A stretch of DNA of 63,186 bases, filler included, from Asterionella formosa (Eukaryota): assembly GCA_002256025.1 (NCBI GenBank). It is 15 parts of 15 records of this genome, joined end to end, with 100 filler letters (N's around TTAATTAATTAA, not from the genome) between each part and the next. Parts side by side here need not be neighbours in the genome. Positions count along the whole stretch, not along the records: positions 1 to 16,494 come from NKIB01004854.1; 14 more parts are not named here. One strand, written 5' to 3'. This document shows, piece by piece, positions 1,581 to 51,459 of this stretch; position 1 is the first letter of the stretch, and every line of letters begins with the position of its first letter. Made by a program: the position numbers and the translations under genes. The notes beneath the pieces are model-generated. The model saw only the letters and a program-made list of their open reading frames with translations. It was not told the origin of the DNA and did not search any database.

Positions 1581-3905
1581 AATATCGCCCCTAATTTTGT
1601 CGCCCCTACGCACCATCATGCTCAAATTGTAAATGAGCATGGTGTACAAGCAGAGTACGCAAGGAATGGACTCTGTCCTTATCATCCAGACATTCAGCTT
1701 CGTAAAAAGAATGTGATTGGAGTTGACGAGACTGTGCGAGACAGCTGCCCTAAATGCGATCGTCTGAATACCCAAGGGCCTACTTCTCCAGCGACTCCAA
1801 TGCCTCAGCAGTCTCCTTCTTTGCCAGCAATCCAAATTCAAACCACTTCAAGTTCGTGTCCGATTGCTGCAATTCTTTCAAATATGCAAATGAATGAACG
1901 GAATGCTGACATTCAAATAAAAGGTTGTTCAGAACTTTGTGACTTGGCTGCGAATAATGACAACAAGGTGACGATTGCTGCAGCAGGAGGTATCACTACG
2001 ATTCTGTCTGCAATGAAGGCTCATTCCTCAAATGCTAATGTACAACACTATGGTTGTGGAGCACTTATGAACTTGGCTGTTAATGACAAGAACAAGGTGA
2101 CGATTGTTGAAGCAGGAGGTATAACTACGATTCTGTCTGCAATGAAGACTCATTCCTCAAATGCTAATGTACAATACGAAGGTTGTGGAGCACTTCAGAA
2201 CTTGGCTTTGAGAAACGACAAGAACAAGGTGACGATTGTTGAAGCAGGAGGTATAACTACGATTCTGTCTGCAATGAAGACTCATTCCTCAAATGCTAAT
2301 GTACAATACTATGGTTGTGGAGCACTTTTTTACTTGGCTGTGAATGACAATAACAAGGTCACGATTGCTGATGCAGGAGGTATCACTACGATTCTGTCTG
2401 CAATGATGACTCATTCCTCCAATGATGATGTGCAACACTTGATGAAGACTAATTCCTCTAATGCTACTGTACAACAGTATGGTTGTAGAGCACTTGGGAC
2501 CTTGGCTACTACTAATAAAAGGATCAAGCTGATAATTGCCGATGCTGGTGGAGAAGATGTAATTAAATCTGCTATTCGAAATCACTCATCCAATGCTGGT
2601 GTCTCTGAAAAAGGTAATGAAGCACTTCGTATCTTTCAACCAGTCTCAACAACATCCAAGAGATCGCATCTTCCTTCCTTAACAACTCCAACACCAAGCA
2701 TTGGTAATTCAACTGATCTCATTTCTGAAGGTCAATCGAAAATGAAGGAAGCAATGTACAATGAGAATTCAAGACCAATTGAGCTTTCTGTTGAATTCAT
2801 TACTTATTGTACAAACAACTTTGATGAAGAGAGAAAACTTGGTCAAGGAGCTTTTGGTGCTGTCTACAAAGGCAAGGATAACAATCGGTATTTTGCTGTT
2901 AAACGCATTCGTTTCAATATTGCTGTTGAGAAAGATAAGGTGAAGGAAGTTACCAAGGGTTTTAAAAGAGAATTGCAGGTGAGCTCATTTGTGTATCAAA
3001 TATTGCATTTTGTTTCAAGTCTTTATGTTTCTCATTCCACTGTCATACTATTTCAGGCATTGAAGAGGTTCCGACACCCCAATATTGTAACTTTGTATGG
3101 CTATCACTTGTCCTCTGGTTCACCTAATCAATACCTTGTGTTTGAGTATGCATCCAAGGGTTCTCTTGATAAATTTTATGAGAATGAAGAAAGCAGAGCA
3201 ACTCTCTCAAGTGAGATCAGACTTCAAATCATGTTCGACATTATTCGTGCCATCCACTTCCTTCATACTGGTACAGAGGACAATCTTGGTCTGTTTCATC
3301 GTGATATCAAGTCAGCTAATATCTGCCTTGATCAGAACTATACTGCCAAGCTGATTGATTATGGTCTAGCCAAATTTGTTCTTGTAGATGACTCCAATGA
3401 AACCAGTGCAAATTCTTTTTCAGTTCAGATCACATCAAATTGTGGAGTGTTTGGGTCACGTGGCTACATATGTCCATGGTATTCTAGGGGAGGTAAAAAA
3501 TTTGAAGCATCATGTGATGTTTACTCATTTGGCATTGTCATGATTGAGCTTGTGACAGGCTGCCTTCAAAATGATAAGACAATGTTGGGAGATTTCTACG
3601 AACAATACTTCCCAGATGAATTTGAAGGAAACATTAATGAGGCATTGGAGTTGGCAATTCTAAAACTGGTAGAAGATTTTGATCCTCTAGCAAAGAATTG
3701 GGATGATGGAATTCTGGCCTCGGTGTGTACATTAGCCATTCGTTGCATTCAGAAAAATCGCAAAAAGAGGCCAACAACTATTAAATTGGTTGAAGAGTTG
3801 GCGTGTTTGGTTGAAGAGTTGGGTCAACTTGTAAGTGCAACAGATCATTATGTTGGATGTGAATCGTCACAATTGATAATTGCCTTAGACAAACATAAGG
3901 TTTAG
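1581..3905 (+). CDS. Zn-ribbon + armadillo-repeat + IRAK/Pelle(RLK)-like Ser/Thr kinase; 5'-truncated by LTR; one intron 2979-3056
   Basis: Frame open from 1581 (CPYHPDIQLRKK...CPKC motif). About five to six 43-44 aa ARM repeats. Kinase motifs GQGAFGAVYKG, AVK, HRDIKSAN, DYGLAK, DVYSFG. Removing the 78-nt GT..AG intron restores FKRELQ|ALKRFRHPNIV. Confidence 0.85.
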   Translation, partial: NIAPNFVAPTHHHAQIVNEHGVQAEYARNGLCPYHPDIQLRKKNVIGVDETVRDSCPKCDRLNTQGPTSPATPMPQQSPSLPAIQIQTTSSSCPIAAILSNMQMNERNADIQIKGCSELCDLAANNDNKVTIAAAGGITTILSAMKAHSSNANVQHYGCGALMNLAVNDKNKVTIVEAGGITTILSAMKTHSSNANVQYEGCGALQNLALRNDKNKVTIVEAGGITTILSAMKTHSSNANVQYYGCGALFYLAVNDNNKVTIADAGGITTILSAMMTHSSNDDVQHLMKTNSSNATVQQYGCRALGTLATTNKRIKLIIADAGGEDVIKSAIRNHSSNAGVSEKGNEALRIFQPVSTTSKRSHLPSLTTPTPSIGNSTDLISEGQSKMKEAMYNENSRPIELSVEFITYCTNNFDEERKLGQGAFGAVYKGKDNNRYFAVKRIRFNIAVEKDKVKEVTKGFKRELQVSSFVYQILHFVSSLYVSHSTVILFQALKRFRHPNIVTLYGYHLSSGSPNQYLVFEYASKGSLDKFYENEESRATLSSEIRLQIMFDIIRAIHFLHTGTEDNLGLFHRDIKSANICLDQNYTAKLIDYGLAKFVLVDDSNETSANSFSVQITSNCGVFGSRGYICPWYSRGGKKFEASCDVYSFGIVMIELVTGCLQNDKTMLGDFYEQYFPDEFEGNINEALELAILKLVEDFDPLAKNWDDGILASVCTLAIRCIQKNRKKRPTTIKLVEELACLVEELGQLVSATDHYVGCESSQLIIALDKHKV

Positions 3906-4072
3906 GGTTAGGGAAAAGGGAAGACGCCTCTAGGCGTCATCCCTATGGAGCATCCAGCCGTTAGGGTAGGGTTAGGGCAAAGGGACGACGCCTCCAGGCA
4001 CCATCCCTATAGAGCATCCAGCCCTTCTAGGGCTGGGCATGTATCTGTAGCACACAGTATGACTAATCCTAT
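3902..4072 (+). repeat. Tandemly duplicated TTAGGG + hairpin module; homologue at 15075-15148
   Basis: Two ~60-bp units, each TTAGGG-like tract + AGGGA-x-GACGCC..GGC(G/A)(T/C)C-A-TCCCT hairpin + GAGCATCCAGCC; third hairpin CCAGCCCT-TCT-AGGGCTGG at 4018-4036. Confidence 0.8.
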
Positions 4073-6169
4073 AGATGGAAACTGGTATGATAATGAATGT
4101 GTTATGGCTGGGTGCATGATCGAAGAACATATAGTAGCTCTAGTAGGCCTGGTACAAACCATTATTTCTAAAAATATAGCTAAATATTTTGTGCGATGAA
4201 TCTCTTGTTGTTACAACCATCACCATGTTGATTGAACTCGGTTGGTTCCATTTGCTTCCCTTCAGTGCCTTGTGTTTTGCGATATAGTATTAGAACCATG
4301 ATCATAGCGCTGATCGGAAACCAAACCGCAAAACAGATGACATCAAACTTTCACTTGTTTGGACGATATTTTTCTTTGGTGATGGCGGAGTCATCACTAC
4401 GTGGGTGCTGGATTCCGGCCGACCTCCTCATTCACTACATGAACCAAAAAAACAACATTGGAAGCAACATGCTATTGACTACGCAAACATTGATGACAGA
4501 CATGAACAAGTGCTACCCTATTGAATTGGATCATCAATTTACTGGATGGCTTGGCTCATTGCTGACATATTTTTTAAAATCTAATTTCAGATTCCAGATC
4601 AGAACCTTCATCAGTCGAACCGTCAACCGGACAGGCAGTCGGCAGTCGGCAGAGAAGGGTGTGTCGAACAGTCATCGATCCCCAGGTCTTCCGTTGAGTC
4701 ACACCCTCGTATTTGATTCAATTCTGATACCGGTAGGCGATAAAAGAATATAGCGTCGATGTGGTAGACAAAGGACAGCGGTGAGGCCGTGAGGCCGTCG
4801 ACAGAACCTCATGGTGTTTTAATTCAACAAGAACAGAAGTGTGTGTGATCTGGTCTGTAAGATATGCATACCACAACGGTACCTGGTACCAGGGTACTGT
4901 ACGGCAATTCGAATGTCGTCCTGACGCTCCCCGCTTTGGTACCGTACCTGGTACAATACAAGTGCAAGTACATACCGTCATGTACAGTACATTCCTGTGT
5001 ACTCTGTTCCTGGGTGGTACATACAAAAAATTCAAACCCCACTGTAATGAAACTTTTTACGACCGTAGTGAAAGCTAATGTACTACCGGTACCTGGTACC
5101 CTGGTAGTAGCAGTCAACTAGCACTGTGTACAAGGTACCAGGTACCTGGTACCAGTAATCTTGCGAAATAGAATGTGTATGGATGTATTACCGAAATATC
5201 TGATAGCTACTATAGGTGCTGATAATAAAATTGCTTACTGGCATGCATGTGTACACCGCCTCTTAATTTACAAGCAGAATCAAAGTGTTGAAGCCAAGGC
5301 ATATCCATCCTGATGCTCTATTGGAACAACTTGATGATGCTGGTGGCAACAAGTGCCAATGCTGAAGGAGGTCTTGGCATGACATCTGCTGCATTGGACT
5401 TGAGCCGCCAATTGAGTGGAATTGCTGAGGAGGTTGTGATTGCAGGAACAATTCATGTCGCTTGCTTTTGCACCTTGATTTTACAGTGGCTGCTATTGAT
5501 TTGAAATGCTGAATATGTAGAATGTAGAAACTCTGCTTATTTGATGGAGGAGAATTGTCATGAAGTTCCCCTGCTAGCTAGCTACTAATTCGAGTGGAAG
5601 GTAGCTATATTGAATGGCTGCCTGGTGGTGAACTTGTTACTATCCTTGCTTCTGAAAAGTCGACATTTGCATAAGGTTGTTGCAACTGACCGTGTTACTA
5701 TGTGTGTCCAAACATGTATAGGATGCATTGTTGACAACGAAAAAACAAAGCCAGTTTTTTCAGTGCCTTGATGTGCCACCTTGCTTGTTAGGCAGCATGC
5801 CACATAGAGAAGCATGATATGTATTTGCCACATTGCAAGTGATAACTTCAGAACAATGTTGGATAGATTGAGTTTATCATTTCCGCCTCTTTCTTCACAA
5901 AAAGTGAAGGCTTTATTCAGTGCCAATGATGAGCGATGCAATGCAAAACCCTTTTTGGAAAAACTTCGACAGGAAATTGGTGCCATCACCACAATTGATT
6001 CTGAAGAAAAAGAAAGCAATGATCAGCGATGCGGAGGACAAAACTTTGGCTTGCTTGTTGCTACATCGTCTCATGATTGTAGAATAATGAAAAATCTAGC
6101 TAGTAGTAGCTAGTATATATATTTTAGTGTTAATGATAGTCAATGTATTGTTATTTCCAGGAAACTTAA

Positions 6170-8580
6170 CTTGTAGAAGTGGATGGGCTGGTGCCCACCA
6201 TTGTTGCAACAATCCGCCCTTCATCATTTGGTTGATTAGCTAGCTATCTGGGAGACTGTTTTGTCAACACCATATGCTTCACTCATAAATGCGGTCAATG
6301 GCTACATGAGCAGTATAGCTATCCAGCTCAAATTAAGTGTGCCACTGCTTCCTACAAGACCTTGCGCCAAGTAGCAACAATAGAGGCACTTTACACGCCC
6401 CCCCCTTTCAACCCTTGTAAATAGCAGCCTAGCATGCTTGCTTTCGAACACCAATTCCCACTTCAAACTCCTGTCAGAGTCCCTGTCAGAGTACAAAGAG
6501 TGTTGTTGGAGTCTTACTAAGCAAGAAGACTGCCGTGGTGGTATTCTGGCTCCACAACCAGCCTGCCATTACACCCACGTCAAATCCAAATTCATTTTCA
6601 TGTTGTGTTTCCTTGTCTTTTAGATTGTTTGCTTATTCACTCTTGGAGCCTGAAATTAAATTCGAAATTTCCATCATTGAAAGTTGGGGTCACAGCTGCA
6701 GGGGCGACCTTGAGACCAACAACTTTAAACCTTTGCCCTGCCTGACATTCTTGTAAGGCGCGCAATTGCGACTTTTACTTGTATTCAACTTTGTCATCCC
6801 CTTTTGCATAGCTGACTTGAGTACCAGAAAAGCCCAGCCACTATTTGCGCCAGCCTGCATCCATCTCTTTCATGTCGCTCTCGTTGTGTTTGCTTCTGCA
6901 GTGAATACAGCCCAAGTAGCTACTACCTCATTCCTCTGCTGACCAGCTAGTCGTCGCTTGTTGTGCTCCACCTGCCGCCTGTTCCCCTTGTGGTACCACC
7001 TGCTTGCATACACCAGCACCAGCACCAGCACCTTGATCGAGATCCACACCAATTTCGTCAATATATACCACCTCACCTTGCTTCTGAATCAGTACTACTA
7101 CTAATAATAGGAATTTTCTCCACTGGAGTGGCAGCTGCTGGAAGGCGACGCACAAATGCGTAGCTATTGCGACCTGACGCGCTCTGTCAGCAGTTTATCT
7201 GGTAATCTGGTAGGTAGCCATGTAGGTGTGGCTCAAAAACGGCCCATAGCAGTGGCTGTGCTTGGCAGCGTCAATGGTACTACTTCACGTGGGAACTGCA
7301 GAAGAATACCTACCTATTTGGAACGCACTACAGTTCTTTACAAAAGCCAATCATCAGTCACACCACCGCACCTCTCTTTGAGCACATGCATACTTACATG
7401 CTCCTCCAATACACAGCCAGCCAGGGCTGCTGCCACCTTGGCATCAGGATATGGAGAAGGAGATCAACATCAATGTAAGTTTCTACTTGCTTTGTGTGCC
7501 GTTTCCAGCAACTGCGGAAATCTATATCATCGCGGGAGCATCCATTCCTTCATGCATGGGCTGGGTTGAGGGATATTTGCGAAGGCTGTGTGTTCCAATT
7601 AATTCAATGATGCCAAGCTTGTTGAACTCACTAACTGACCAAACTTCATCATGCAGGATACAGTATGCCTTTTTTTTTCCATTCTGAGCAAGGATTATTG
7701 GTGGCTTCCAAGAGGAAAAACCCAGTCATTCTCCGGCCCAGTGAGCTGCCATTGGAGCGACATTCCTTCTGTCTCCAGGTGGATTACCAAGTTAAAGTAG
7801 TACACAATACTGTGGCTCGCTCCATTGCACCCATGAGTAATTGATCTGGTGCATCCCTCTCATGATCCTTGCTTGACATTCTTGGACCAACACAGCTGAC
7901 ATAGTATCAGGGTAAAAGGAAGCAAAACGAAGATTGGGCTTCAAGTTTTCCTTCGTCTTCAATCTGAATTGGACACAATCGTCGATCCGGCCGACCATGT
8001 GGAATTGGAAGGCCAGGAACATAGAGAAAGCAACTATCTGGTAGCGGCGGATACTGTCTTTGCATCGTTGAAGTGCAGCAATTGTGTTGGTAAGGCAAAT
8101 TCTTGGGCTTCAAGCAGCGCAAGTGGACGACGTGCTGCTGATGCTTTTCCTTGCTTGCGGAGCAACCCGACCTCCTTTTTCTTTACAGCCTTGCTTGATT
8201 AGTAGCTAGGTCAAGAACAAGCACAGATCTGCCTGGTTGGATTTCCACAGTTGGCTGGTCATGACATTCCAAGTTGAGAGCCGGAGTGGCATGAAGTACT
8301 ATTAGGACAATGCCGCCCTTCTTGTAATAGCTAGCTACTATTCCATTGAGGTTGATCTAGTAGTACCATCTGTTGGATTGTTGTTTTGGCTTGGATTTGG
8401 TTTACTGCACCATAAGTCTTCACAGCCATCCATTTGTACATGTGTTCAGGCTTGATTTCTGCTAGCTGCTCTAGACTTAACTCATAGTCAGTAGCATATT
8501 CTATCCCGTGCATCTTTGTAGGTCGCTCATCATAGCTAATAGAATCCTCCTGGTGTGCGTGTATTGATGGCATTGCAAAA
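6170..8580 (-). pseudogene. Decayed Crypton-type (CryptonS-like) tyrosine recombinase with C-terminal GCR1_C-like domain
   Basis: Fragments in several frames: YKWMAVKTYG, FQFHMVGRIDD, HSLRKYPST, PDAKVAAAL, ARLLFTRVERGGRVK; homologous to 48042-49797 and 51013-51459; many stops and frameshifts; ends approximate. Confidence 0.8.
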
Positions 8581-8785
8581 GTTGGTTCATTCCTATCAAC
8601 ATGGTCTAGATTTGTATTGCTTTATTCAGGAAGCCTTCTATAAATAGTGGTGTGTGGCTGGGGGCAACCATCTACCGGCGGTATTATGGTACCTGGTACC
8701 AGTACCATTCACTTGGTGGTTCCTGGTCCTCTGTGTACCAGGTACCGGTAGTGCATACAACTATATATATATAAATCTTACATAC

Positions 8786-8975
8786 ATGGACACATAAGAT
8801 TGATTTATGATGATGCTATGGTTGAATTTCCCAAGAGATTACAACAATATACTACGCACGACTAATTTGAGTTGAAAATTCAACCAAAAGAAGAGAAAAA
8901 ATTCAACCCCCAGCCAACAATGCAACCGATTTGAAAAGGCAACTTGGGTTGAATTTTAGCTACCAATAACAGTAC
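8786..8975. repeat. Dispersed repeat rich in GGTTGAA/TTCAACC, upstream of the Crypton ORF; inverted copy at 35061-35331
   Basis: ATGGACACATAAGATTGATTTATGATG...GGTTGAATTTCCCAAGAG...GAGTTGAAAATTCAACCAAAAGAAGAG matches the reverse complement of the end of contig 4. Confidence 0.8.
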
Positions 8976-11481
8976 ATACTGTACACCGAAAGTTGGCTTT
9001 GTTCTTATGTGAGGGACAAGGTCCCGGTAAATGAGTACCAGGTACAGGCAATTTAGCCTCAAGAAGAGTATGGTAAGATAAATTCCTCCAATGGGAAGCA
9101 AATGAAAAATGTATCATTGACTTTGAATTTGAATTGATCTGCTGGTCCTGTGGGGGTGGGGGTGCCGCATGTAGCTTCTCGAGGTGGAGTGGTTGCTGAT
9201 GAGAAATTTGCGGAATCTAACCTGCTTGGCAAATCTTATTGTGCCATCTGTCATGGTGATATGGTCATTGGCAAACTTGGCTTGCCAGATGGCAGCCAGG
9301 TATATGTACTATATTCCTTTCACTTTTCGCTGAGGCCAGGCAGAGTCTCCACATGATATTTTATCTTACCCAGAACATTGTATTCTGACTGTCCATATCA
9401 AGTCAGATAACAGGCAGGCAGGCAGGCAGGTCGAAGGAAGTGTATGCAAATTGATACCAAAGTGGCTGGTGCACCACTTTGTTCTTTAGGGGAAGGTACG
9501 CACGTACAGAGTATTCTGTAATGTTGATGACAATAAATAAGTTTTTGAATTGATAATCGAAACATGCGGCCCATCCTTGTTCTTGGATAGGATACTGGCT
9601 GGCTGGCTGATAGGCAGACGGACATGTACTGCTAGTACCTCTCTGTGCTTCCCAATTAAAATCCGCCATTGCCTTGTCCTTCTCTGGCCCGCCAGCAAAT
9701 CGTCGTCGTCACAAATACTTTCTAGAAAAATGCACTTGCCTCCAATGTTTGCTTCCATTAGGGTTAAGCTTATGGTAGGCTTGTGTAGTAAACAGCAGTC
9801 TGAACTTCCAACTTGCAAACAGTCTGAACTTCCAACTCTTGACATGATGCTTTGCTTGCCTACACCCTGCAAAATCATCATTTCCATCTGTATTCTATAA
9901 AGGAATGCATTGCTTGCATTGCTTGTCAAAAAACCGAAAGCTCTGCAATATTGGTAAGGAAATGCAGCCAGTGCTATGAGGAAAAATAGCTATCTGCAAT
10001 CTGCAATCTGCAGTCTGTAATCTACAATCTACATTACGGGCTTTGACAGGCTCGCTTCGATTTATCGCTACATGAGCATGCTGGTTTTCGACGCCAAAGC
10101 CATACCAACATGAATCGCAGTTTAGCAGCATGTAACAAGCACAATATAGCTACCTCATCTGGAAAGTGTGTGAGTCGATTTTGTGACAAAATAAACAAGT
10201 CGCTTCAACTGGAGCAACAATCACTTCTCAGGGAGTGACACCAAATCACAATTACTGAAATCCTGAAATCAAGAGCTATGCATGGCTGCTTTTGGACTGG
10301 AAGCAAATTAAACCACCAACACATCTGAAATCCCTGTGAGTGGATTTCCAGCCAAAGATAGCTAGTACCTAGTTTATGCATAGAATTTGCTTCCCAATGC
10401 CATGTGTGACCATCAGGACCTTCATAAGCATGTTAGTGCGTAGTGTGCAGTGGCCAAATTCGCAAGACAGAGCTTTCTTTTAAAGGGAAAGCTGATGGAT
10501 TGCATCGCACTGGTCCAACAATAATATAACTAGCCAATTTAACTAATTCAACTTTATTGAGTTGTTTCTAGAGCTTGAAAGCAGCTGATTCCGAAGCTTG
10601 CTTCTTGAGCAGGAACTTCGACACCACCAGTGGGGAAAATCAAGAAGGAGGACATTCCTACTATCATCAAGACCCCATTCCTTGGTACAAATGCTTTGTT
10701 ATAAATTCCATACTGGTCCGATGCGCACGCCTCTGAACAACAATCAATCTGTAGGTTGTGGTACAGTGCAGTGCCGGTGGTATTGTTGTATGGTGGTATG
10801 GTGGTATTCTTCTTTGTGTCTTGTACAGAAGGCAGGTGCAGCACCTACACCTAGCGAAGGGAAGATTGAGACTTGGGAGGAGGCATTCTTCGATTCTTGT
10901 TCCTTTTGAGTGTCAGTAAAACTGGTCCGAAAAAGTTGATTGTCAAGATAGGGCATGAGAGACTCAGGCTAGAACAAATAACGGATTCAATAAGCAATCA
11001 CAAAAGAGACTTTGACTTTGACTTTGCCACTTCGCTCTGCTCTGTTGCTTGCTTGCTTCCTTTTCATTGACCGGAAGAAGCAATACAACCAGCTGAGGGA
11101 AACCACCGAATATCAAATACAAATAAACGTAGTTTAATAACAAATAAGACAGGATCAATATCGAACGAATCTATTTTAGTTATATGAGATAGTATCGTCA
11201 TTTCCACAAAAGGTAACTCATCAACCATCAGTTGGATCGCTCACAAAACGGCAACAAGAGAAGACCGGGAACATTCGAATATACATGAATGACACCTGTA
11301 ACATCGCCCATACCACCTCTCAAATCGATACTGATATGTCGAGGAGGACCCAGCAGCTTTGATGAATCCATGTGTGCCATGTTGGTGAAATGTGGGTTTG
11401 ATGATGACATGTTGATTGTGGTGAAATCCGAGATGATTTGTTGTTGTTGTTCTCGACAGTGTGGTCCCCTTGTACCTGGTA

Positions 11482-12519
11482 CCAGTTAAAAACTGCTGTG
11501 ACCCACTAAAAAAATTTGGAACCGCTGTGACCCACTGAACAGGAGAAAAACACGGTTTGACCCTACCAAATGCAGATTTGTTAATTTTAAAACTTCGACC
11601 CCAATCCTGAGAATGTGCGGTTTAAGGCTATGCCATTAGATATAAGTTTATAGCAATTGGTTTCTCCTAAAATATTGGTTGAAAAGTGCGATCGACGAAA
11701 ATATTGCCAGAACACGGATTACCCCATGTTTTGAGGACTCACTGTTATATGATATACGCAGCTTAATACAAAAATATCGCCTTCGATTTATTTGTTGTCT
11801 GATTCCTGTTATATCCTTCTTATCCCTGTCACTTGATAGTGCCTAAATAACTTGAGCATCATAAAATGAGCGCCCTTTCACCCATACACTTGTAAGGAAA
11901 TGTGTACATACCAGTATAGAATTTTTAGCTCATAATATTCATCCAAACTATGGCAAAAAAATCGACTGTGCCTTCGGGCAAGGCGGCTCAGTCTAATAAC
12001 AGCACAAACAAAGCCAGGATGATTGAACATTGCCTATTAAACATCTCTACAAATATGGAAGTGCTGAAAGCGAACAAAAATGGAAAACTACCATATGGCG
12101 CAATTTCTCGTGCTGTGCACGATGTACAAGAACTTGTCCCATGGGTGACTACACAGAAAGTGAAATACTTTCTAAGGAAAATGATATAAATACTGGATGC
12201 GAAAATTCTTAAAAATAATTTTGCGAAAACCAAACGGGGTAATCCGTGATAATAATGGTATATAAAATTATATACAATTATAGATAAAAATTTAAGTACT
12301 GCTGTGACCCATTACCGGCAAATTTTGTCCACATAAAATGGTTCGTATCTCAGTACCAGGTACCTCGACCTTCAATGAGAATACCGACTGATCCACAACC
12401 TGCTGACTCCTTTGGTTAACAAGACCTGGAAGTTTGATTCTCGCAAGGCATGGAATAGGTTTAGTCGAACTAATCAAACGAATAGGAGAACTCAGTGGGT
12501 CACAGCAGTTCTTTACTGG
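11482..12519 (+). mobile_element. Non-autonomous Tc1/mariner-pogo-like element (MITE/deletion derivative), TA target duplication
   Basis: TA|CCAGTTAAAAACTGCTGTGACCCACT ... AGTGGGTCACAGCAGTTCTTTACTGG|TA (26-bp TIR, 2 mismatches). Subterminal GCTGTGACCCA copies at ~11524 and ~12301. Internal ORF 11950-12189 (NGKLPYGAI..PWVT) resembles a transposase N-terminus. Confidence 0.85.
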
Positions 12520-12659
12520 TACCAGGTACCAGAGTACCGTATAGCTATTGTTGTGTCTATGTATGATATACTGGTAAATGATGCGTCCTATATGTACTGA
12601 TTCTACGATGATAATAATTGTGTTTCTAGTGACTACATTCATAGTAGTCAATATGGAAT

Positions 12660-13047: not shown

Positions 13048-15087
13048 ATGCTAAGAGCATTTGGTCGAAAGAAGATAGAAACAGAATTTGAGAAATATGT
13101 CAAACGGTTGAAAGCGAATGATTCCAGTTTGACTACATTTGATCTCGATAAAAATATCATTGGTGTTGATGGAGCCAAGGCCATTGCAGAGGCACTCAAG
13201 GTCAATACTGTCTTGACTACACTTTATCTCGATAGTAATTCAATTGTCGTTGATGGAGCCAAGGCCATTGCAGTGGCTCTCAAGGTCAATACTTTCTTGA
13301 CTACACTTGATCTCGGAAGTAATTCAATTGCTCTTGACGGAGCCAAGGCCATTGCAGAGGCTCTCAAGGTCAAAAGTGTCTTGACTTCACTTAATCTCAG
13401 AGACAATTCAATTGGTGTTGACGGAGCCGAGGCCATTGCAGTGGCTCTCAAGGTCAATACTGTCTTGACTTCACTTAATCTCGGAAGTAATTCAATTGGT
13501 GTTGACGGAGCCGAGGCCATTGCAGAGGCTCTCAAGTTCAATACTGTCTTGACTTCACTTAATCTCGGAAGTAATTCAATTGGTGAAGAACTAGAAAATG
13601 AAATTCAAAAACAGCTTGATGACAAGAGGAATGATCAACCATCATTCAGGGGTGATTTTCAGACAAATGCACTCGTAGAGGAAATGATTGAAAAGGATAG
13701 AACAGGTCATCATATTACTGATTATGATGGTTTGCCAAAGGTTATTACAAATCAAAAAGTCTGTTGGCCATTCATTGAATGTAAGCATAAGGGTTGGGAA
13801 CCAAATCAGTCAAGAAGAATCATGTCATATTCAAAAGTGTGGGTAGATTCAAAATGTTGCAGTGAACCAACAGACATACACAAAGAAACATTAGTTGTTC
13901 TTTCAAGTCCCAACTTCAGCCAACCCTCACATATTCTTCTTAAGGCATATCGATCTGTGATGAATTTATCAATATCAAATGATTTTGTTGATACTGACAC
14001 CTTTCTCAGGTCGATTACCATGACCAGGTATGGCATATTGCTCTGCAATAGATCAATTCCAGAAAACCCTGGCAGATCTGGTATTGAAATGTTTTTTCCA
14101 AAATGGATCTCAAGATTTTGGAACAAAGGTATTGATAATCTTTACTGGCGACATGAATCCTTCAAAATAAATTCAAGAAACGGCAGTGAACGTGAAGCTG
14201 TCCTGTACTTCAAAATTGGGGCTTTATGCTACAAGATTCCATTTTGTAAATATTTGTATGGCCATGCTCTTATATATGGTACAGGTGGCACTAAGAAGGA
14301 TATTGTAATGGGAATGGGACTTCTGCATGAAGCAGGGAATGAGCTTTGTATTGCAGAAGCCTTCTTTGAACTAGGTGTCCTTTATGAGCATGGTGTGATG
14401 GGAAAAGATGAACAATGCATAGCCAAAGACTATGTGATGGCTCAAGGCTTTTATGAAGACTCGATAAAAGCTGCCTTTGAAAATATTCATGATGAAAATA
14501 AATCCGTTTGGATTCCACCAATTGGAATAATGAATCAACTGCTTCATGTTGACAGCGTACATTTGCAAGAAGATTCAGTACATAATGATGCAGGAATGCA
14601 TTATTCTTGGATCATTCTAGGTCATTCTTTCCTGTTTGCTACTGCAGCAACCCTTGCAAGCGGCTCTCAACCTTTTCACTACTCACTTCTACTGTTTTTT
14701 ATTCCCTTACTTGGCATTCTCCTGGCATATTATTCCTATTTAGATAGCTATTTTGCATTGGGAGTAATATCAAGAAACCAAGAAGATGTCGATTTAATGG
14801 TGCAAAGAAAATTTCATGCATACACACTTATCTTGGAACAAGCACAACATCATGGCAGCAACGATGATGATTTAGTTTTTTTATCCAATGAACAAAACCG
14901 TTGTATAAAAGAAAAAGAAGATGTCATTTGCAGATTTGTGAACCATCATATGTTGGCATATTGGCAAATTTTTATCTTTTTTTTTATAGGGTGCATCTGG
15001 GCTCTACTTCTTGTGAATGAGATTTATTCACGTTACTTTGAGTGCTCTTACTGGTTTTATACATGTAAGCTTCCTCCCTATGAGTAG
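13048..15087 (+). CDS. RI-like/NLRC3-like LRR + Sel1-like repeats + C-terminal 3-TM domain protein
   Basis: Single ORF from ATG 13048. Six 28-aa LRRs (LKVNTVLTSLNLGSNSIGVDGAKAIAEA). Sel1-like YGHALIYGTGG / FELGVLYEHG. Three hydrophobic helices at the C-terminus. Confidence 0.88.
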   Translation: MLRAFGRKKIETEFEKYVKRLKANDSSLTTFDLDKNIIGVDGAKAIAEALKVNTVLTTLYLDSNSIVVDGAKAIAVALKVNTFLTTLDLGSNSIALDGAKAIAEALKVKSVLTSLNLRDNSIGVDGAEAIAVALKVNTVLTSLNLGSNSIGVDGAEAIAEALKFNTVLTSLNLGSNSIGEELENEIQKQLDDKRNDQPSFRGDFQTNALVEEMIEKDRTGHHITDYDGLPKVITNQKVCWPFIECKHKGWEPNQSRRIMSYSKVWVDSKCCSEPTDIHKETLVVLSSPNFSQPSHILLKAYRSVMNLSISNDFVDTDTFLRSITMTRYGILLCNRSIPENPGRSGIEMFFPKWISRFWNKGIDNLYWRHESFKINSRNGSEREAVLYFKIGALCYKIPFCKYLYGHALIYGTGGTKKDIVMGMGLLHEAGNELCIAEAFFELGVLYEHGVMGKDEQCIAKDYVMAQGFYEDSIKAAFENIHDENKSVWIPPIGIMNQLLHVDSVHLQEDSVHNDAGMHYSWIILGHSFLFATAATLASGSQPFHYSLLLFFIPLLGILLAYYSYLDSYFALGVISRNQEDVDLMVQRKFHAYTLILEQAQHHGSNDDDLVFLSNEQNRCIKEKEDVICRFVNHHMLAYWQIFIFFFIGCIWALLLVNEIYSRYFECSYWFYTCKLPPYE

Positions 15088-15317
15088 GACCAAGCCCTTC
15101 CAGTGCTGGGTGTGATGACCATGAAGCACATGGTACGCATAATCCTATGAAAGTCATGGAATAGTAAGGGTCAGGGTTACTTTAATAGCTACTGTTGCAA
15201 GTTTGTAGTAGTATAAGACACCAGTTTTTTAATTGAATTGCAGCAAGTGTTGTTCACTATGGATGTGTTGTCTAAAACCCTAAAACACAATGATGATGAT
15301 CTCAACCTAACCCTAAC

Positions 15318-15353
15318 ATGTACAATTCAGCAACAAGTGGTAGAGAAACTATT
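15318..15353 (+). repeat. Direct repeat, right copy, immediately after an AACCTAACCCTAAC tract
   Basis: Matches 12894-12929; preceded by C-strand telomere-like repeats at 15304-15317. Confidence 0.9.
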
Positions 15354-16443
15354 AAGGTTGTGGCCCTGCAGTTACGCATTGCCAGGTCTGTTTTTTTTCA
15401 AAATAATTTTTTGATGTACTTCAATCTACACATTACGGACAACTAATAAAGTAGACCAATTTGCATATGCTTAGATACAGTCATTCCTCGACTTGAGAGT
15501 ATGATCTAGTACCGGTATATCCAGATATGGTAAGGACATCATTTCTGGAGTGAAGTGGCAGTTATCCCTCTTGGAATCATAACTATCCAAAAGCTTTAAA
15601 AAAAATCTACAAGGGATATCTGCCACTTTTCTGCAGAAGTTAAATCCTGACATTATAGGGTACACAGCTATCTATTTCATTCTTCATGAAACCCCGTAGA
15701 TGTAGAGCAATTCTCCTACAAAAAGTCGACCTGATCGGCTTTTCAACAGTCGCCAAAATATTGGAATCAAAATTTGTGTATGCAAAATGTTCTTGTCTAC
15801 TTAGAGTCTTGCGTAGGTATGTTTCGTTGAATAATTCTCAGTCCAAAAAGATTCCAGGGTAAGTTCCGGCGTCACTACCGGTACACATATTCTGATTGGT
15901 TGAATTGAATATACTCACCTGCTCCAGATTCGCTGAAGTATCCCGGTCTTATAAAATCTCGCTCGCCAGCCACACTTGAACTATACGTATTAGGTGTACT
16001 GAAAAAGCAGTACTGGTACTACTGGTAGTTTCATCTTGTCTTCCATCATGATGAACCAAGATTATGTAATACCTAGTACTCCTAGTACCAGTAGGTCTAT
16101 GGTGGTGCAATGTGGTGCAGCGACAAAATGACGTCAGCAAGGAGTGCCTTACCGGTAGTTAAAAATTCATTACCGGTAGTAACCTATATACATGATACAA
16201 AATGCTTGCAATACTTTATTAGTACCGGTATGTCCCATTACATGTATGTACCGGGTGGCCTACGGCCGTTGGCTACTACAAAATACATATCTTATATGAA
16301 TCTGATCGTGATCCTATGTAGAAAATATCACTACGGTAGTGCAGGCCGTAGCACGGATTTTGTAAGTGGGTAGTCTGATGGTGCAATTTTGGTGTCTCTA
16401 AGTAATAGTGGTGCAATCGGTGGTGCAATTGTGGTGCAAATGA

Positions 16444-16494
16444 TAGGGTTAGGGTTAGGGTTAGGGTTAGGGTTAGGGTTAGGGTTAGGGTTAG
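16444..16494 (+). repeat. Telomere, (TTAGGG)n
   Basis: TAGGG + 7 perfect TTAGGG + TTAG running to the contig end, G-strand pointing outward; GGTGCAA-rich telomere-adjacent sequence at 16379-16440. Confidence 0.93.
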
Positions 16495-16594
16495 NNNNNN
16501 NNNNNNNNNNNNNNNNNNNNNNNNNNNNNNNNNNNNNNTTAATTAATTAANNNNNNNNNNNNNNNNNNNNNNNNNNNNNNNNNNNNNNNNNNNN
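16495..16594. other. Artificial contig linker (first of 14)
   Basis: N44-TTAATTAATTAA-N44 (stops in all six frames); others start at 17623, 18750, 35332, 36459, 37586, 38713, 39840, 40974, 42101, 43228, 44354, 60935, 62061. Confidence 0.98.
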
Positions 16595-17468: not shown

Positions 17469-18354
17469 TACCACTAAAAAACTGTAAGCCAACGTTATTT
17501 TACTCTATCTTTCGACTAAAAATATTTATGTAATTCAACGATCAAAACTTGACGCAAGTACAAAGCTTATGTTAGACAATGCTCTCTGCTATACTATTAA
17601 GTTATCAGTTTTGATTCTGTGTNNNNNNNNNNNNNNNNNNNNNNNNNNNNNNNNNNNNNNNNNNNNTTAATTAATTAANNNNNNNNNNNNNNNNNNNNNN
17701 NNNNNNNNNNNNNNNNNNNNNNGAATCAATTGTTTTTTAAACCCTAGCCTCGAGCAAGGTTTTCAGATTTAGGAACCTCACGTAAAACAACGTTCTATGT
17801 ACCAGGGGTACTGGTACCAGGTACTGTCACTCTACCGGGTACCGGTACGTACATACATATTGCATTGATGTTGATATAGCTGCCTGTGTACCGGTTGACT
17901 ACAATGTACCGGTAAGTAAGATACCAATAAATCATTATGAAGAACAACTGCACACACCAGGATGACTGTGCAGGTGATGCTTGCTTTATTTTTATTTTTT
18001 GAATATATGAAATGCGCGCCATTTATGATACTTGGCTAGTGACAGGACGACTGCCTTATGGACATCATACAAAGTGTACACGACTATGGCACATGACTAG
18101 CTCGAGCCGAAGAAAGATTCCTTCAATTCAAACAATGATTTTCGGAATTGTGAATGCGAATCTTCGTGTAGGTCTAGATTCGTAATGACTACCGGTACAG
18201 TATTAACCAGGTAACAGGTACCTGGTAGCCGATACGTATGGACACAGACAGGATTTACGATGTTCACAGTTTATATCCGGCGAGTATGCAGCTGGACCTT
18301 CTGTCCATACTACCGGTAACTATGATACATTAAGCGTCCCTTGTCCATGGTTAG

Positions 18355-18645
18355 GTACTGGTACCTGGTACCAGTACTGTTACCAGGAGGACAGTGTGCA
18401 GTACCAGGGTACTACCGTGGTGCAGCCAAACAGCCTATCAATCATACTTCCTGGTACCTAGTGCCTGGTACCGGTAACTACGATTGTTGCTCACCAACAC
18501 CAGAGACTGGCTGAGGTAATACCGGTACCGAATATTGGTACCGGTACCAGGGTACCAGGTACCAGGTTAAGACCTGGTACCTGGTACTACCTGGTCTCAA
18601 TACCAGCACCTGTGAGTACCTGGTACCTGGTACCAGCTACCGGTA
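18355..18645. repeat. GGTACC(A/T) / TACCGGTA low-complexity array
   Basis: Dense GGTACCA/GGTACCT heptamers; similar tracts at 4875-5155, 33640-33720, 34735-35010, 60795-60860. Confidence 0.85.
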
Positions 18646-19279
18646 CATTGTTATCCGGCAGCCGTGCTTTTTGGCTGCCGCTTGTTTTCCCATGGCTGAT
18701 TTTAGCTACCGGTATGCACATGTACTGTATGTACACTGTACATCATACANNNNNNNNNNNNNNNNNNNNNNNNNNNNNNNNNNNNNNNNNNNNTTAATTA
18801 ATTAANNNNNNNNNNNNNNNNNNNNNNNNNNNNNNNNNNNNNNNNNNNNCGGAGACATGCAATGCTCAACGATGCTCAACAAGTACCAACGGTGCTTTAT
18901 TTCCAATCTGGCAGGCTATTGTAATCTCTACAATCAACAATGACTTAATTATGTGTCTACAACATCAACTACTACTTCTACGTGTGCTGAATTCTACAGT
19001 GTGAATCTTCCTCTTGCATGTGTTATTCTTTGCCAGTTCAGATCAAAGAAATATGTCGGAGCGGAAAAAATAATAAGTGAATCGGAATTGGCGACTCTTT
19101 CGTTCATTATATGGTGAAAGCAGCATAATATTGCGGCAGAGCAGCATAATTTCGCTTTTAAACTGTTGCGATGGCTAGTTGGTCAACATATATTGTCACG
19201 AACACACATAATTATTGGTGTGATCACATAATTATTCGATAAGTGAAATAAATTTTTGTTTAACCCGAATAAATTAGGG

Positions 19280-26216: not shown

Positions 26217-27141
26217 CGAATAATCAATCAGTTTTTTAATGTATGCTGAGTAAAACGTTAGATCTAATGGAAAATTTATTCACAGACAGTTATATTTTTT
26301 TCCATGATTAGAAAGAAGAGAATGTCATTCATTCTGAGTGGACTGCTACTACTATGGAAAACAATCAAAATGATCTATTCCCAAAGAATTCGGCAAGATC
26401 ATAATTTGAAAAGCATACTGCTTCGTTTTCTAGTAAGGATACTAAGTAAATGATGACCCATGATGGAAAAATAGACTCTCCTGGGGAAGTGTTGGAAGTT
26501 ATAGAAACTCTGGGTGACATTGAGAGTCTAATGAGTCAAATTGTGAAATGACTAATGGGACTAAAAGTGGGATCAAAAGTAGTTGGAGTAGAAGCCTTGA
26601 ATTGTATTTTGTAGCTAAGATTGAATTTGGCAGGACTGGTTTCTTGGCAAGATTGATTGTTTAGAAATAATTACAATTAGTTCAGAATCTGAGAACCTGC
26701 TTGACTTGAGTAAGGTAGAACAGTGCAAGGTACTATTTTGAGTCTACCAAGTCATTCCCCATCTGGGTTACTTGGAACACTAGCTAATGGTAATCAGTCA
26801 CACTTCATGGCTTAGATACACTTAGCTACCGGTACAATCATCGCAAAATTCTACTAGTATAATACCCGTTTTATTTTTAATCCGGTATATCACAATGACT
26901 CTTATTTCAATTTGTACCATCTCGTCGTGCTTTATTATATTTTAAAAATCCTCTGTGAATTTCATTATCCTTGATGAAATGAACGCTATTGGGTCATTAT
27001 AATTATTAGAAACGGATCATGAGAAATTTGGACTGCAAGGAAAAGTGAAACTGCCTGTCAGGCATGACTGTCTGTAACACCCTAATATGCTATAGCATGT
27101 ATTTCTAACATAGCCATATTATCCCCATCGCAGATTTCATC

Positions 27142-28884
27142 ATGCTACCCACCACCATCAAGTCCTACTGCGGATTTGCATTAGACACGAACTACATGGT
27201 GGAACCATTTCGTATTTGCAGCAGCATTGCCAACAACACAGCCAGCTGTGCATCAAAGTCGGTTCTCGAGTCTGTTGGTTGCTTTTGGCAATCAGGGTCC
27301 TGCAGTCCCACCAAGGCTGGATTTGAGGGGTATTGTTCGTCGAAAGTAACTTCAACTACTTGCTTTGCGACACCTGTTCAACTATACACAGATGCTTGTG
27401 TCTGGTACCGAGTGGAAGTTGCTCTTAACGCTTTTTGCGGATTTCCTTTCGACAAAAACCCGTGGACGTATCCTCCATCGCTATGCAGTATCAAAGCGAA
27501 AACCGCAGGGGAATGCGAAGGTACTGGATTCCTATCTTCTTCATTTTGTATTTGGAAAGGAGACTCGTGTGAATCTGCCCCAAGCAACATCCAATTCGCC
27601 AACGAGTGCTCGTCGTTCAGTAATGCCGGAAAATGCTATGGTTATCGAGGTGGCGACGGAAACGGATTGTGCAAATGGTATGAGCCAACCAGGCCTCCCA
27701 CAATGTCTCCTACCCTGCACCCCACTGTCAACCCAACGTTGTCGTCCATTCCGTCTAGGTCTCCTTCAGTGGTCCCTTCCAAATCATTGAACCCGACTTT
27801 ATCTTCCATTCCGTCGCGGTCGCCTTCACTGATGCCTTCGATTTCGTCCTTACCTTCAAATGATCCGTCACCTGCTCCAACTTCGGCTCCTTCTGCTCGC
27901 CCAACACCCCGACCCGCGAACCGACTAGACGTTGCCCCAATTCAGTTGCTAACACCAAATCCGACGCACCAACCGACTTCAAATCCTACTCGTCCGCCAT
28001 CACCCTTTCCAACCAACCTTCCCTCAGCGATTCCGACTATAGTTTTGACTGAAAGACCAACTCAACGACCGACTCGCGCGCCGACCGTCTTAATTACGAT
28101 TTCGCCCATTGCTCCAAGTCGGTCACCTTCCGCAGTACCGTCTACAGATCCCACATTCACTCCCACTTCACTGCCTTCGAGAAAACCGTCAGCCTTGCCG
28201 TCCAATCAACCGTCGTTTTCACCTGCTCGATCACCGTCTGCAACACCGTCTGAATTTCCGTCAGCCGTCCCATCTAGATCGCCCACCGAAACTCCAACGC
28301 AAACTCCTTCTTTCTCGGATGCTCCCAAACCTGAAGCGACGAAGGACTCACCTGGCATGGGTGCCTGGACCATCGCAGCGTTTGGTGTTGCCGGTGCAGC
28401 AGTTGGAGGAGCTGGTTGCTGTGGAGCTTGCTTTTGGTTATCTAAAAAGAAGGATGAATCGGCAGATAGGAATGACACTGGTGATGGTTCCCATACAACA
28501 TTTGGGGCATTCAAGGCGAATGTGCGGCCAGATCCTCGTTCAGAAATTTCTATCCCAATTGGAAACAATGACAAAACAGTTGAATGCGACATTTCCAGCC
28601 ATGATGATATACGAATAAATCGTTTTGTTTCGACTGTGGCTTCCACAAAACGCCAGCGAGGGACTGTCCTTGTAACGCCATCCCCGCCAGGTTGGGTATG
28701 GGAGAAATGTCTTCGCAATGTCCTGGGGAAGCAGGAACCTGCCTTCCCAAAAACCTCAACTCTTGAAACAGCGGACGAAAACAAATCCATTGTTATTATT
28801 GGATCTCCACCTGGATGGATATGGGAGAAACTAATTCGCTTTATCAGAAAATCCGAGCTAACGGTTCATCCAGATGGAAAGTAG
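27142..28884 (+). CDS. Type I membrane protein: two Cys-rich repeats, Pro/Ser/Thr stalk, TM helix, cytoplasmic tail; probably has an upstream exon
   Basis: 580-aa ORF; duplicated CGF..D.N..C..W..C..CSS..C..WY module; PSxxPS repeats; TM AWTIAAFGVAGAAVGGAGCCGACFWL then KKK; acceptor-like CGCAG just upstream and no signal peptide in the ORF. Confidence 0.8.
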   Translation: MLPTTIKSYCGFALDTNYMVEPFRICSSIANNTASCASKSVLESVGCFWQSGSCSPTKAGFEGYCSSKVTSTTCFATPVQLYTDACVWYRVEVALNAFCGFPFDKNPWTYPPSLCSIKAKTAGECEGTGFLSSSFCIWKGDSCESAPSNIQFANECSSFSNAGKCYGYRGGDGNGLCKWYEPTRPPTMSPTLHPTVNPTLSSIPSRSPSVVPSKSLNPTLSSIPSRSPSLMPSISSLPSNDPSPAPTSAPSARPTPRPANRLDVAPIQLLTPNPTHQPTSNPTRPPSPFPTNLPSAIPTIVLTERPTQRPTRAPTVLITISPIAPSRSPSAVPSTDPTFTPTSLPSRKPSALPSNQPSFSPARSPSATPSEFPSAVPSRSPTETPTQTPSFSDAPKPEATKDSPGMGAWTIAAFGVAGAAVGGAGCCGACFWLSKKKDESADRNDTGDGSHTTFGAFKANVRPDPRSEISIPIGNNDKTVECDISSHDDIRINRFVSTVASTKRQRGTVLVTPSPPGWVWEKCLRNVLGKQEPAFPKTSTLETADENKSIVIIGSPPGWIWEKLIRFIRKSELTVHPDGK

Positions 28885-33353: not shown

Positions 33354-33929
33354 GGTTTGTTTGTGTGAGCGTATAGGAGTTGACGATGAGTACGATGGAA
33401 CGATGGGAGAGTAGACTATTCATATGTTTTGAAGTATGGTGGCGAGGTTGCTGCCGAATATATTGCTAAACTACAAATATTGTTGATTAGACCTGCTGCT
33501 TGAATCTAATACAGTACCAGTACGCGGTATGTTTAGGGGAATCGTACATGTACCGGTATAGTGAAGGCACCACCAGTACTGGTACATACCTCCATAAAAA
33601 CCGAGAGCCCACGACGTTCAAGCTTCCTGAATTTGAACCAGTACTGCCGGTAGTCTACTACCTGGTACCAGGTACCAGGTACCGGTAGCTCGAACGAGTG
33701 CGTACCAGGGCACCGGTAGGAGGGTAAAGAAACATTATACCCAGTACTGTATTGATTCAGAGTGCCGTACCGTAATCAAACACAAAATTTTCATGAGTAT
33801 GGAAGATAATACCGGTAGACTCTAGCTAAATTGCCGGTAGTACATCTACGACTACTCGGAGCTTTCACCATTTGACACCCTTTCCATAAGCGTTAATAAC
33901 TGGTAGCTTAGTAACTCACAATAAGAATA

Positions 33930-34450: not shown

Positions 34451-35060
34451 CTCCACCTTGCTTCTGTCGAGTTTTGTTGATGTTTCCTTTTAAAATATTT
34501 TTATCCACTATTTAAGGTATCTGGTACCACCAGGATTCAGTTCATATTTTCCCTGGAGGCAACAAATTAATTATGATGATGAGTGAGAGTGATCATGATA
34601 GGGTGAGGGAGAGGTCTTCATAAACTATAAACCATACCTCCTCTGCTCCTGCTTGTGGTGGCTGGTACTGCTACACAGTATGAATTATTCCCTTTCTTAC
34701 TCATAGTGGCAGTATTATTTTACGAACATAATTACTGGTACCTGTATATGGTACCAGTTCCTACGATACCGGTACGGTAAGAGAAGTACGGTACGAATAT
34801 GGCGCTGTGCATGGTACCAGTACTGGTACCAGCCACTCCGAGTAATCATAAACATGCATTCCGTCACGTACATGTATCTACGTACCTTGGTACCTGGTAC
34901 CAGGTACCAGGTCCAGCCTGATCATGAGCGAGCAGATCATCATACCGGTACCTGGTACCTGGTACCTGGTACCTGGTACTCGTTCTCATAATAGGGTACC
35001 TGGTACCTCATACTCCTAGTTACTAATGAACATACCGTAGCGATATATGTTGGTATCATA

Positions 35061-36458: not shown

Positions 36459-36558
36459 NNNNNNNNNNNNNNNNNNNNNNNNNNNNNNNNNNNNNNNNNN
36501 NNTTAATTAATTAANNNNNNNNNNNNNNNNNNNNNNNNNNNNNNNNNNNNNNNNNNNN

Positions 36559-51012: not shown

Positions 51013-51459
51013 TAGAATATGCCAGTGACTATGAGTTTAGTCTAGAGCAGCTTGCAGATATCAAGCCTGAACATATCCACAAATGGATGGCTGTGAAGAC
51101 TTATGGTAAACCACCAAAATCAAGCCAAAACGAGAATCCAACACATGGTAGATCAACCTCATTGGAATATTGTTACAAGAAGGCGATGTATTATGATTTC
51201 ATGCCACTCCGGCGCCTCTCAACTTGGAATGTCATGACCAACTGTGAAAACCCAACCAGATCTGTGCTTGTTCTTGACCTAATCAAAGATTTAAAGAAAA
51301 AGGACTGCAAGCAAGGAAAAGCATCAGAAGCACGTCGTCCACTGAAAGCCCAAGAATGTACCAACACAATCAATGCACTTCAAAGATGCAAAGACAGTAT
51401 CCGCCGCTTCCAGATGGTTTCCCTATGTTCCTTCCAATTCCACATGGTTGGCCGGATCT
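51013..51459 (+). pseudogene. Crypton recombinase N-terminal fragment
   Basis: KWMAVKTYG, GRSTSLEY, ENPTRS, QGKASEARRPL, FQFHMVGR; DNA closely similar to the copy at ~7990-8505. Confidence 0.85.

Follow-up and report, generated by a model that had tools for sequence, protein, structure and literature searches.

In a 63,186-nt stretch of DNA from the freshwater diatom Asterionella formosa (assembly GCA_002256025.1; hereafter the window, at its full length and with the linkers that join its 15 contigs), the open reading frame (ORF) of an Arm-kinase gene ends inside a short telomere-like tract, and this tract is the beginning of a repeated, palindrome-bearing module that we call module A. Our analysis suggests, with a probability that we put at roughly 55%, that the module forms the terminal inverted repeat of a DNA transposon of the cut-and-paste class that has telomere-like tips. 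The module would make up the outer 140-190 nt of a transposon of ~3.7-4.3 kb that carries one ORF of ~990 aa, a putative transposase from a large family without a Pfam model, and the ends of this transposon would be inverted copies of the module, each starting with about two telomere-like repeats (TTAGGGTTAGGG). One copy would have inserted at the very 3' end of the kinase gene, where the TAG of its tip would have become the stop codon and the module the 3' untranslated region (UTR), and an older, decayed copy would play the same role at a leucine-rich repeat (LRR) gene. Palindromes lying ~16-41 and ~53-71 nt from the tip would be putative protein-binding sites in double-stranded DNA rather than RNA hairpins, and tandem partial units would have arisen by slippage or aberrant repair at internal TAGG-like sites. 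Such an end is a more ordinary finding than a ribozyme or a gene-capturing telomere element, yet it is an unusual transposon end.

The kinase ORF (1713-3905, + strand) encodes Arm repeats and a protein kinase domain, for which the Pfam profile is matched to position 259 of 263, and it terminates AAG GTT TAG; this stop codon, at 3903-3905, is the first TAG within TTTAGGGTTAGGG. A preliminary description of this DNA, made from the sequence alone, had placed the kinase stop inside the tract and two tandem units and a third hairpin behind it, and both points were borne out when the stop was checked in the sequence and the 64-nt units and three palindromes were located (Table 1). Tandem Repeats Finder reports a 64-nt period over 3903-4023 (1.9 copies, 89% match), and a repeat comparison finds 3903-3962 and 3967-4026 to be 88% alike. 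Unit 1 breaks off after ~47 nt of module A and is followed by a new telomere-like tract; unit 2 contains a degenerate version of palindrome 1 (3981-4008) and palindrome 2 (4018-4036), the latter being the third palindrome of the series, CCAGCCC..GGGCTGG. At ~140 nt the window copy departs from a longer form of the module known from other contigs and then resumes with a 52-nt subterminal segment, the homologue of which, in metagenome contig L001, has the long form of A on one side and the ~990-aa ORF's stop codon on the other. Allowing up to one mismatch, we counted 10 copies of TTAGGGTTAGGG in the window, where 100 shuffles gave 0.21 on average.

The module also recurs outside the window. A 22-nt pattern search retrieved five metagenome contigs (L001-L005), all carrying the module at 81-97% identity and each with telomere-like repeats preceding it, and on this recurrence the module is a dispersed repeat. 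A scan of genome contigs gave a single hit, a chance match of 22 nt in a bacterial genome bin, and neither a DNA pattern scan nor a protein profile scan of viral contigs gave a match. The conserved unit is ~140 nt in length; a longer form is present in L001, L005 and partly L004, of which ~670-760 nt are common to L001 and L005. Partial units of ~19, 34, 47 and 100 nt, which share the start at the tip, stand in tandem outside the full unit and are separated by one to five telomere-like repeats. L002 (2349-2405) has 34 nt of the long form's interior with telomere-like repeats on both sides, and in L004 (~250 nt into the long form) and in the gene of protein P0197 the long form stops at the same place and gives way to telomere-like repeats. 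It is possible that this long form is itself a mosaic. Read depth in the DNA run is higher across the module, but contig depths are summed in this measure, so that no copy number was drawn from it.

The preliminary description had also aligned the kinase module with the end of the unrelated LRR gene. Within the window this likeness (4004-4072 against 15075-15148) is weak, at 71.6% over 74 nt (E=0.016), but it is upheld by copies from outside: those on the foreign contigs align to 15066-15148 with E-values of 3e-5 to 4e-4, and an nhmmer profile built from eight non-window copies alone matches 15064-15151 with E=1.9e-7 (26.1 bits). Judged by these matches, 15064-15151 is a real, diverged copy of the module (A'). 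The LRR stop codon (TAG, 15085-15087) does lie within the aligned stretch, as had been described, and a telomere-like tract does follow it (TAAGGGTCAGGGTTA, 15165-15179).

Upstream of the module, six of the six copies that have such a flank show a long ORF on the + strand whose end falls within the module or 0-180 nt ahead of it (Table 1); L004 was left out of this count because it has no upstream flank. The flanking genes vary between copies and are positioned outside the repeat, so the capture of genes by the element, which had been proposed earlier, leaves no sign. No continuation of the L005 LRR gene past the element was found downstream when the LRR protein of the window was used in a tblastn search, and the 54-aa open frame of the module, used as a query for fused genes, matched only four short proteins.

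The ~990-aa ORF (P0001) is found beside the module at both of its own ends. Residues 1-46 are encoded on the module's strand in the window, 277 nt inside the module, and the homology ends at 4519/4520, where another repeat starts. The last 386 residues (605-990) are encoded at L001 6-1163 (97% identity), on the opposite strand from the module and reading towards it. With the N-terminus beside the window copy and the C-terminus beside the L001 copy, the module stands at both ends of the ORF in inverted orientation; the opposite-orientation module on the two sides of the ORF is seen in two different copies, and the 52-nt subterminal segment is common to both. We infer that one copy of A would have both ends, that the ORF would be the transposase and that the palindromes would bind it.

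One protein search returned 72 relatives of P0001, mostly on contigs of 3.4-4.5 kb, and the 90% cluster of P0001 holds 192 members. A profile search with the family gave 14,567 representative clusters at E<=1e-3, and the best 150 representatives were all close family members that provided no bridge to a named family. The family is large and multicopy and looks like that of a mobile-element protein. In the Atlas, it lies nearest to eukaryotic clusters of DDE_3 (IS630/Tc1-type), with scores of 0.90-0.92 and 181-204 shared features. Among 45 members of the family, Pfam HTH_33 was matched in 6 and SAP in 11, and the NCBIfam IS630 model in 2; among 25 further members there was one SAP match and the others were without any. 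D527/E528, D661 and E884 are conserved, and hhalign places the D and E motifs of P0001 in register with those of eight bacterial IS630 proteins, but without significance. The spacing between D661 and E884 is 223 residues, far more than the 35-residue D287-E324 spacing in the eight aligned proteins. A PDB profile search with the family gave no match. The assignment is weak, and we regard the ~990-aa ORF as a putative transposase. No reverse-transcriptase family was matched in the P0001 family or in the 93 window ORFs scanned (at least 100 aa).

Two sister elements, B and C, stand beside the LRR copy, with C lying between A' and B. Element C is flanked by TAA on both sides (15165-15167 and 15314-15316), and its right tip, 141 nt after a forward telomere-like 12-mer, is the sole reverse-oriented one in the 63 kb of the window. 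The window holds the left part of B. In L004 a fragment of A is followed by TTA, a complete 1.2-kb element B and TTA again, and the ends of this B copy (positions 2-16 and 1196-1210) form 15-nt arms with 93% complementarity, separated by 1179 nt and extendable to 24 nt. Both elements thus have a 3-bp TWA duplication on their two sides (TTA/TTA for B, TAA/TAA for C), a target duplication of PIF/Harbinger type that could be read for B and C only. As a consequence of this duplication, the TTAGGG look of the B and C tips is in part TTA joined to a tip starting with GGG, and the tip of A has one further full repeat beyond TTA + GGG.

Table 1. Module A, its neighbours and the ORFs that flank its copies. 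Positions are those of the window unless a contig is named; A' is the diverged copy at the LRR gene.
Feature	Position	Strand	Remarks
Telomere-like tip TTTAGGGTTAGGG	3900-3913	+	includes kinase stop TAG 3903-3905
Unit 1, partial module A (tip, hairpin 1, start of hairpin 2)	3903-3962	+	profile E=2.7e-18
Palindrome 1, GGGAAGACGCC TCTA GGCGTCATCCC	3917-3944	.	13-nt arms 3917-3929 / 3932-3944, 92% complementary
Second telomere-like tract TTAGGGTAGGGTTAGGG	3961-3977	+	between unit 1 and unit 2
Unit 2, module A at its whole conserved length (~140 nt)	3967-4104	+	profile E=4.2e-46
52-nt subterminal segment	4103-4154	+	local score 39; 200 shuffles 20.1 +/- 2.0, maximum 28
First 46 codons of the ~990-aa ORF (P0001)	4382-4519	+	89% identity, E=4.5e-20; ATG at 4382
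Diverged copy A'	15064-15151	+	profile positions 29-111; without telomere-like tip or intact palindrome 1
Element C (146 nt)	15168-15313	.	inverted telomere-like tips GGGTCAGGGTTA... / ...TAACCTAACCC
Element B, left part	15352-16089	+	TTA then AGGTTGTGGCC...; 77% identical over 827 nt to L004 copy
(TTAGGG)8.5	16444-16494	+	end of first contig; orientation same as module tip
Flanking ORF, kinase copy	3902		Arm-kinase
Flanking ORF, LRR copy	15064		RNI-type LRR
Flanking ORF, L001			P-loop/NACHT-like, 627 aa
Flanking ORF, L002			plant-type LRR
Flanking ORF, L003			plant-type LRR
Flanking ORF, L005			RNI-type LRR, cut mid-repeat

The transcripts bear on two further readings of the module. A 78-nt GT..AG intron (2976-3053) has been removed in contigs of three RNA runs and is retained in those of the DNA run, and the ORF is open through it, so that the six-frame kinase translation of 730 aa holds 26 intron-encoded residues. 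RNA contigs, from which neither RNA ends nor strand can be read, continue without splicing out of the kinase ORF and into the module (3547-3944 and 3666-3931) and from the LRR ORF past its stop into A' (14609-15170, 14592-15185 and 14609-15100), and we therefore take the module to be 3' UTR and the two TAG codons to be working stops. An introner-like, intron-generating element, in which the module would be spliced out, could draw on the donor-like GT at three junctions (AAG/GTTTAGGG, CAT/GTAAGC and ATG/GTAATT) and on the existence of short GT..AG introns in this organism. It was nevertheless rejected, and has next to no chance of being right, because the same RNA contigs that splice the 78-nt intron stay unspliced at both junctions, and among the joints listed (112 more exist beyond these) none leaves from 3899/3900 or 15063/15064. 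The preliminary description had offered, as one of two readings, a structured RNA element at the 3' end, and a functional 3'-UTR structure of this kind (for stability, localisation or self-cleavage), recruited by unrelated genes, would suit the position of the module within the mature-looking transcripts of both genes. On either strand the canonical copies do fold much more stably than shuffled sequence (z -3.5 to -4.8), and an A.A mismatch in palindrome 1 becomes A-U in L001c and U-A in L001a. Equal folding of both strands, however, is what DNA palindromes give and counts against an RNA function, and a covariation test, which with 11 close copies has little power, gave no signal: 87.2% of cells pair in the alignment against 86.7% after shuffling, and the one pair that changes on both sides is equalled in 226 of 500 shuffles. 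The diverged copy (15066-15165) has lost palindrome 1 and folds like shuffled sequence (z -0.6 to -0.7), the module stands beside the element's own ORF in either orientation, and Rfam returned zero matches at gathering score in the whole window and, in scans at E<=10 of 3700-4500 and L001-L005, chance-level rows only, with no hammerhead among them. A conserved RNA structure at the module is not supported, and we consider such a role very unlikely.

The other rival readings concern chromosome ends. Telomerase might have healed breaks close to the 3' ends of kinase, LRR and NACHT genes in subtelomeric position, with module-bearing sequence then added distally, either by reverse transcription of an RNA ending ...hairpins-UUUU-CCCUAACCCUAA and primed on the G-overhang (as for Athena, Coprina and Terminons) or by break-induced copying from another junction of interstitial telomere and module A (as for yeast Y' elements); repeated rounds would leave units in tandem, each cut short distally and set apart from the next by fresh telomere repeats. 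We regard this history, the main rival, as rather unlikely, but much of what speaks for it also weighs against a transposon end. The module has a constant proximal end and variable distal truncation (~19, 34, 47, 100, 140, 250 and >740 nt), the truncation points lie at TAGG-like sites, and each truncated unit is followed by new telomere-like repeats in variable number; tip repeats that vary from one to five, combined with partial units that begin at the tip, would be expected of successive additions at a chromosome end rather than of a fixed inverted repeat. In all six flanked copies it is a gene 3' end that points at the module, which is not predicted for a two-ended element, and the module has the orientation of the (TTAGGG)8.5 that terminates the contig, 12.5 kb from the kinase copy and 1.3 kb from the LRR copy. 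The closest paralogue of the kinase (P0073; 70% identity over the kinase domain, with a different N-terminal half) has the C-terminus ...PTDHIGLGLGL at the end of a 2.4-kb contig, 18 codons before the window's junction position, and this ...GLGLGL ending means that its frame runs straight into at least 3.5 TTAGGG repeats. Also unfavourable to a transposon are the left end (window) and right end (L001), which both read TTA-GGG inward, and the fact that no single copy of A with both ends was seen among the copies found. The same applies to the protein, since no Pfam catalytic domain was matched in sets of 8, 45 and 25 members of the P0001 family, the 45 members giving, besides SAP and HTH_33, no more than scattered single-member rows with E up to 10, and hhalign comparison of the family, whole or in three slices, with the eight bacterial IS630 proteins gave a probability of 0.2-0.6%, which is not significant. 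A chromosome-end origin also gains from L001, where the ORF forms one colinear series, in its own sense, with the long form of A and the CCCTAA tail, like an mRNA with its 3' UTR, and from EN(-) Penelope-like elements, described in passages of PMC8557442 as joining G-overhangs via reverse-complement telomeric repeats. Against it stands the N-terminus of the ORF, which in the window is on the module's strand, an arrangement that RNA copying at a G-overhang cannot produce. Neither the 93 window ORFs nor the P0001 family gave a reverse transcriptase, although an autonomous partner may be encoded elsewhere in the genome, and there is no hammerhead beside the repeats. End additions would also not yield the inverted tips of the neighbouring elements B and C or the TWA that flanks each of them. 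The 47 kb of ordinary genes after the first contig belong to other contigs and hence have little weight. Of the earlier suggestion that the module is the terminus of a telomere-associated element, we retain a mobile-repeat terminus in a contig that ends in telomere repeats, and favour a DNA-transposon end over addition at a former chromosome end. A further view, which to us seems distinctly improbable, would treat the telomere-like tips as functional mimicry and not as a chance product of target duplication and GGG. Telomere machinery (Myb-type repeat binders, telomerase) would recognise the element's ends, new repeats would cap or extend any break made at or in the element, and copies would be stitched onto chromosome ends, so that a DNA transposon would build subtelomeres and give kinase, LRR and NACHT-type genes new stops and 3' UTRs; the tip-first truncated units with fresh repeats, the gene 3' ends in six of six flanks and P0073 running into repeats would be its traces.

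As for the surroundings of the module, the first contig (NKIB01004854.1, 1-16494) holds both window copies, and with its end in (TTAGGG)8.5 the + strand is the G-strand running towards a contig end that resembles a chromosome end. Three copies of an 11-nt repeat (AATAGTGGTGC) stand before this terminal tract, and 16404-16494 probably represents either a genuine chromosome end or a long tract of interstitial repeats. From 16495 on, 14 linkers (N44-TTAATTAATTAA-N44) join the contigs of the window, at 16495-16594 and then at 17623, 18750, 35332, 36459, 37586, 38713, 39840, 40974, 42101, 43228, 44354, 60935 and 62061; many of the joined pieces are only ~1 kb, and features crossing a linker are artefacts. 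The named relatives of neighbouring proteins come from the diatoms Fragilaria crotonensis and Thalassiosira exigua, and the sequencing runs containing the stretch are labelled algae, freshwater metagenome or lake-water metagenome. Two near-identical phosphoglucomutase fragments (36507-37634 and 38761-39888), with the same three Pfam domains at nearly equal scores, lie on separate short contigs and may be alleles or duplicate contigs. Microsatellites of 7 nt (GGTACCA/TACCTGG type) at 5084-5155, 12518-12538, 18206-18646, 33659-33687 and 34882-34979, as well as in L004 and L005, produce false long-range joints in the DNA run (e.g., 5152 to 12518). Other contigs of the window carry further mobile-element remains in the form of a Mutator-like transposase fragment (51373-52218, - strand, E=1.6e-27) and a zinc-knuckle ORF (45692-46231, - strand). 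A scan for more inverted telomere-like ends gave a sole, weak extra pair, the inverted 20-mers starting TTGGGTT at 49593 and 51255 (15 of 20 positions matching, 1.66 kb apart; mean of 0.06 pairs in shuffles), and 49593-51255 may be another element with G-rich tips. Very long PT-repeat ORFs were seen at 55194-59519 (- strand, 1442 aa, PT-repeat match E=3.9e-60) and 27109-28881 (+ strand, 591 aa), and a similar ORF with a transmembrane segment and a Ser-Pro-Thr repeat lies downstream of the element in L005 (1284-1571).

If the module is a transposon end, its tips would create short interstitial TTAGGG tracts at gene ends, which could be mistaken for healed breaks or for telomeres in an assembly, and kinase, LRR and NACHT-type genes, which evolve fast, would obtain stop codons and 3' UTRs from these tips. 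The ~990-aa protein family, which is very large and without a Pfam model, would be worth classifying.

Internal telomeric tracts are known from several other systems. The Y' subtelomeric elements of yeast have internal TG1-3 tracts between copies of subtelomeric repeats. The TERC-flanked interstitial telomeric sequences of vertebrates are short tracts beside telomerase-copied sequence (PMC8537989). Neither carries inverted ends or target duplications, whereas the tract of the module consists of one to five repeats at the precise tip of a repeat that is also found inverted. EN(-) Penelope-like elements are described as carrying reverse-complement telomere repeats and a hammerhead and as attaching to G-overhangs, and Athena, Coprina and Terminons resemble the module in their 3' reverse-complement telomere repeats, their location at chromosome ends and their distally truncated copies (passages of PMC8557442). 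Unlike these, the module has no hammerhead motif, no reverse transcriptase was matched in the ORFs scanned, and the 5' end of the ORF is on the 'wrong' strand. The hallmark of PIF/Harbinger transposons is a target duplication of 3 bp, TWA (TTA/TAA), and their inverted ends vary in length (passages of PMC13668399). Elements B and C fit PIF/Harbinger and its Tourist-like miniature derivatives in their target duplication; the DDE_Tnp_4 transposase and Myb/MADF partner of PIF/Harbinger, however, have no counterpart at module A, the ORF of which gave no DDE_Tnp_4 match in the 8, 45 and 25 family members, and no second ORF that could be a Myb/MADF gene was seen in L001 or the window. A TA duplication of Tc1/mariner type would be indistinguishable from TTA at the tips of the module, B and C.

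The closest known systems to the module are the telomere-bearing elements of ciliates, with Tel-1 of Tetrahymena and the TBEs of Oxytricha. In the full-text literature searched, with most subscription journals and Repbase lying outside its scope, there was no report of telomere-tipped transposons outside ciliates, and a 2025 preprint on diatom transposons has 0 occurrences of 'telomer'. TBE1-3 of Oxytricha are cut-and-paste elements of ~4 kb and Tc1/mariner type with inverted-repeat tips equal to the host telomere repeat (passages of PMC4724952). They differ from the module's element in their ANT duplication and three ORFs, as against one ~990-aa ORF without a Pfam transposase match, and the diatom host is without the elimination of DNA between germline and soma that ciliates have. 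If our reading is correct, diatoms have DNA transposons with telomere-repeat tips, a feature that we found described only for ciliate germline elements, and the diatom tips are in the opposite strand orientation. The 5' tip of the TBEs has the C-rich strand (CAAAACCCCAAAACCCC...), like that of a free linear chromosome (passages of PMC4724952), whereas in the module it is the G-rich strand, so that the flank, and not the element, looks like a capped end.

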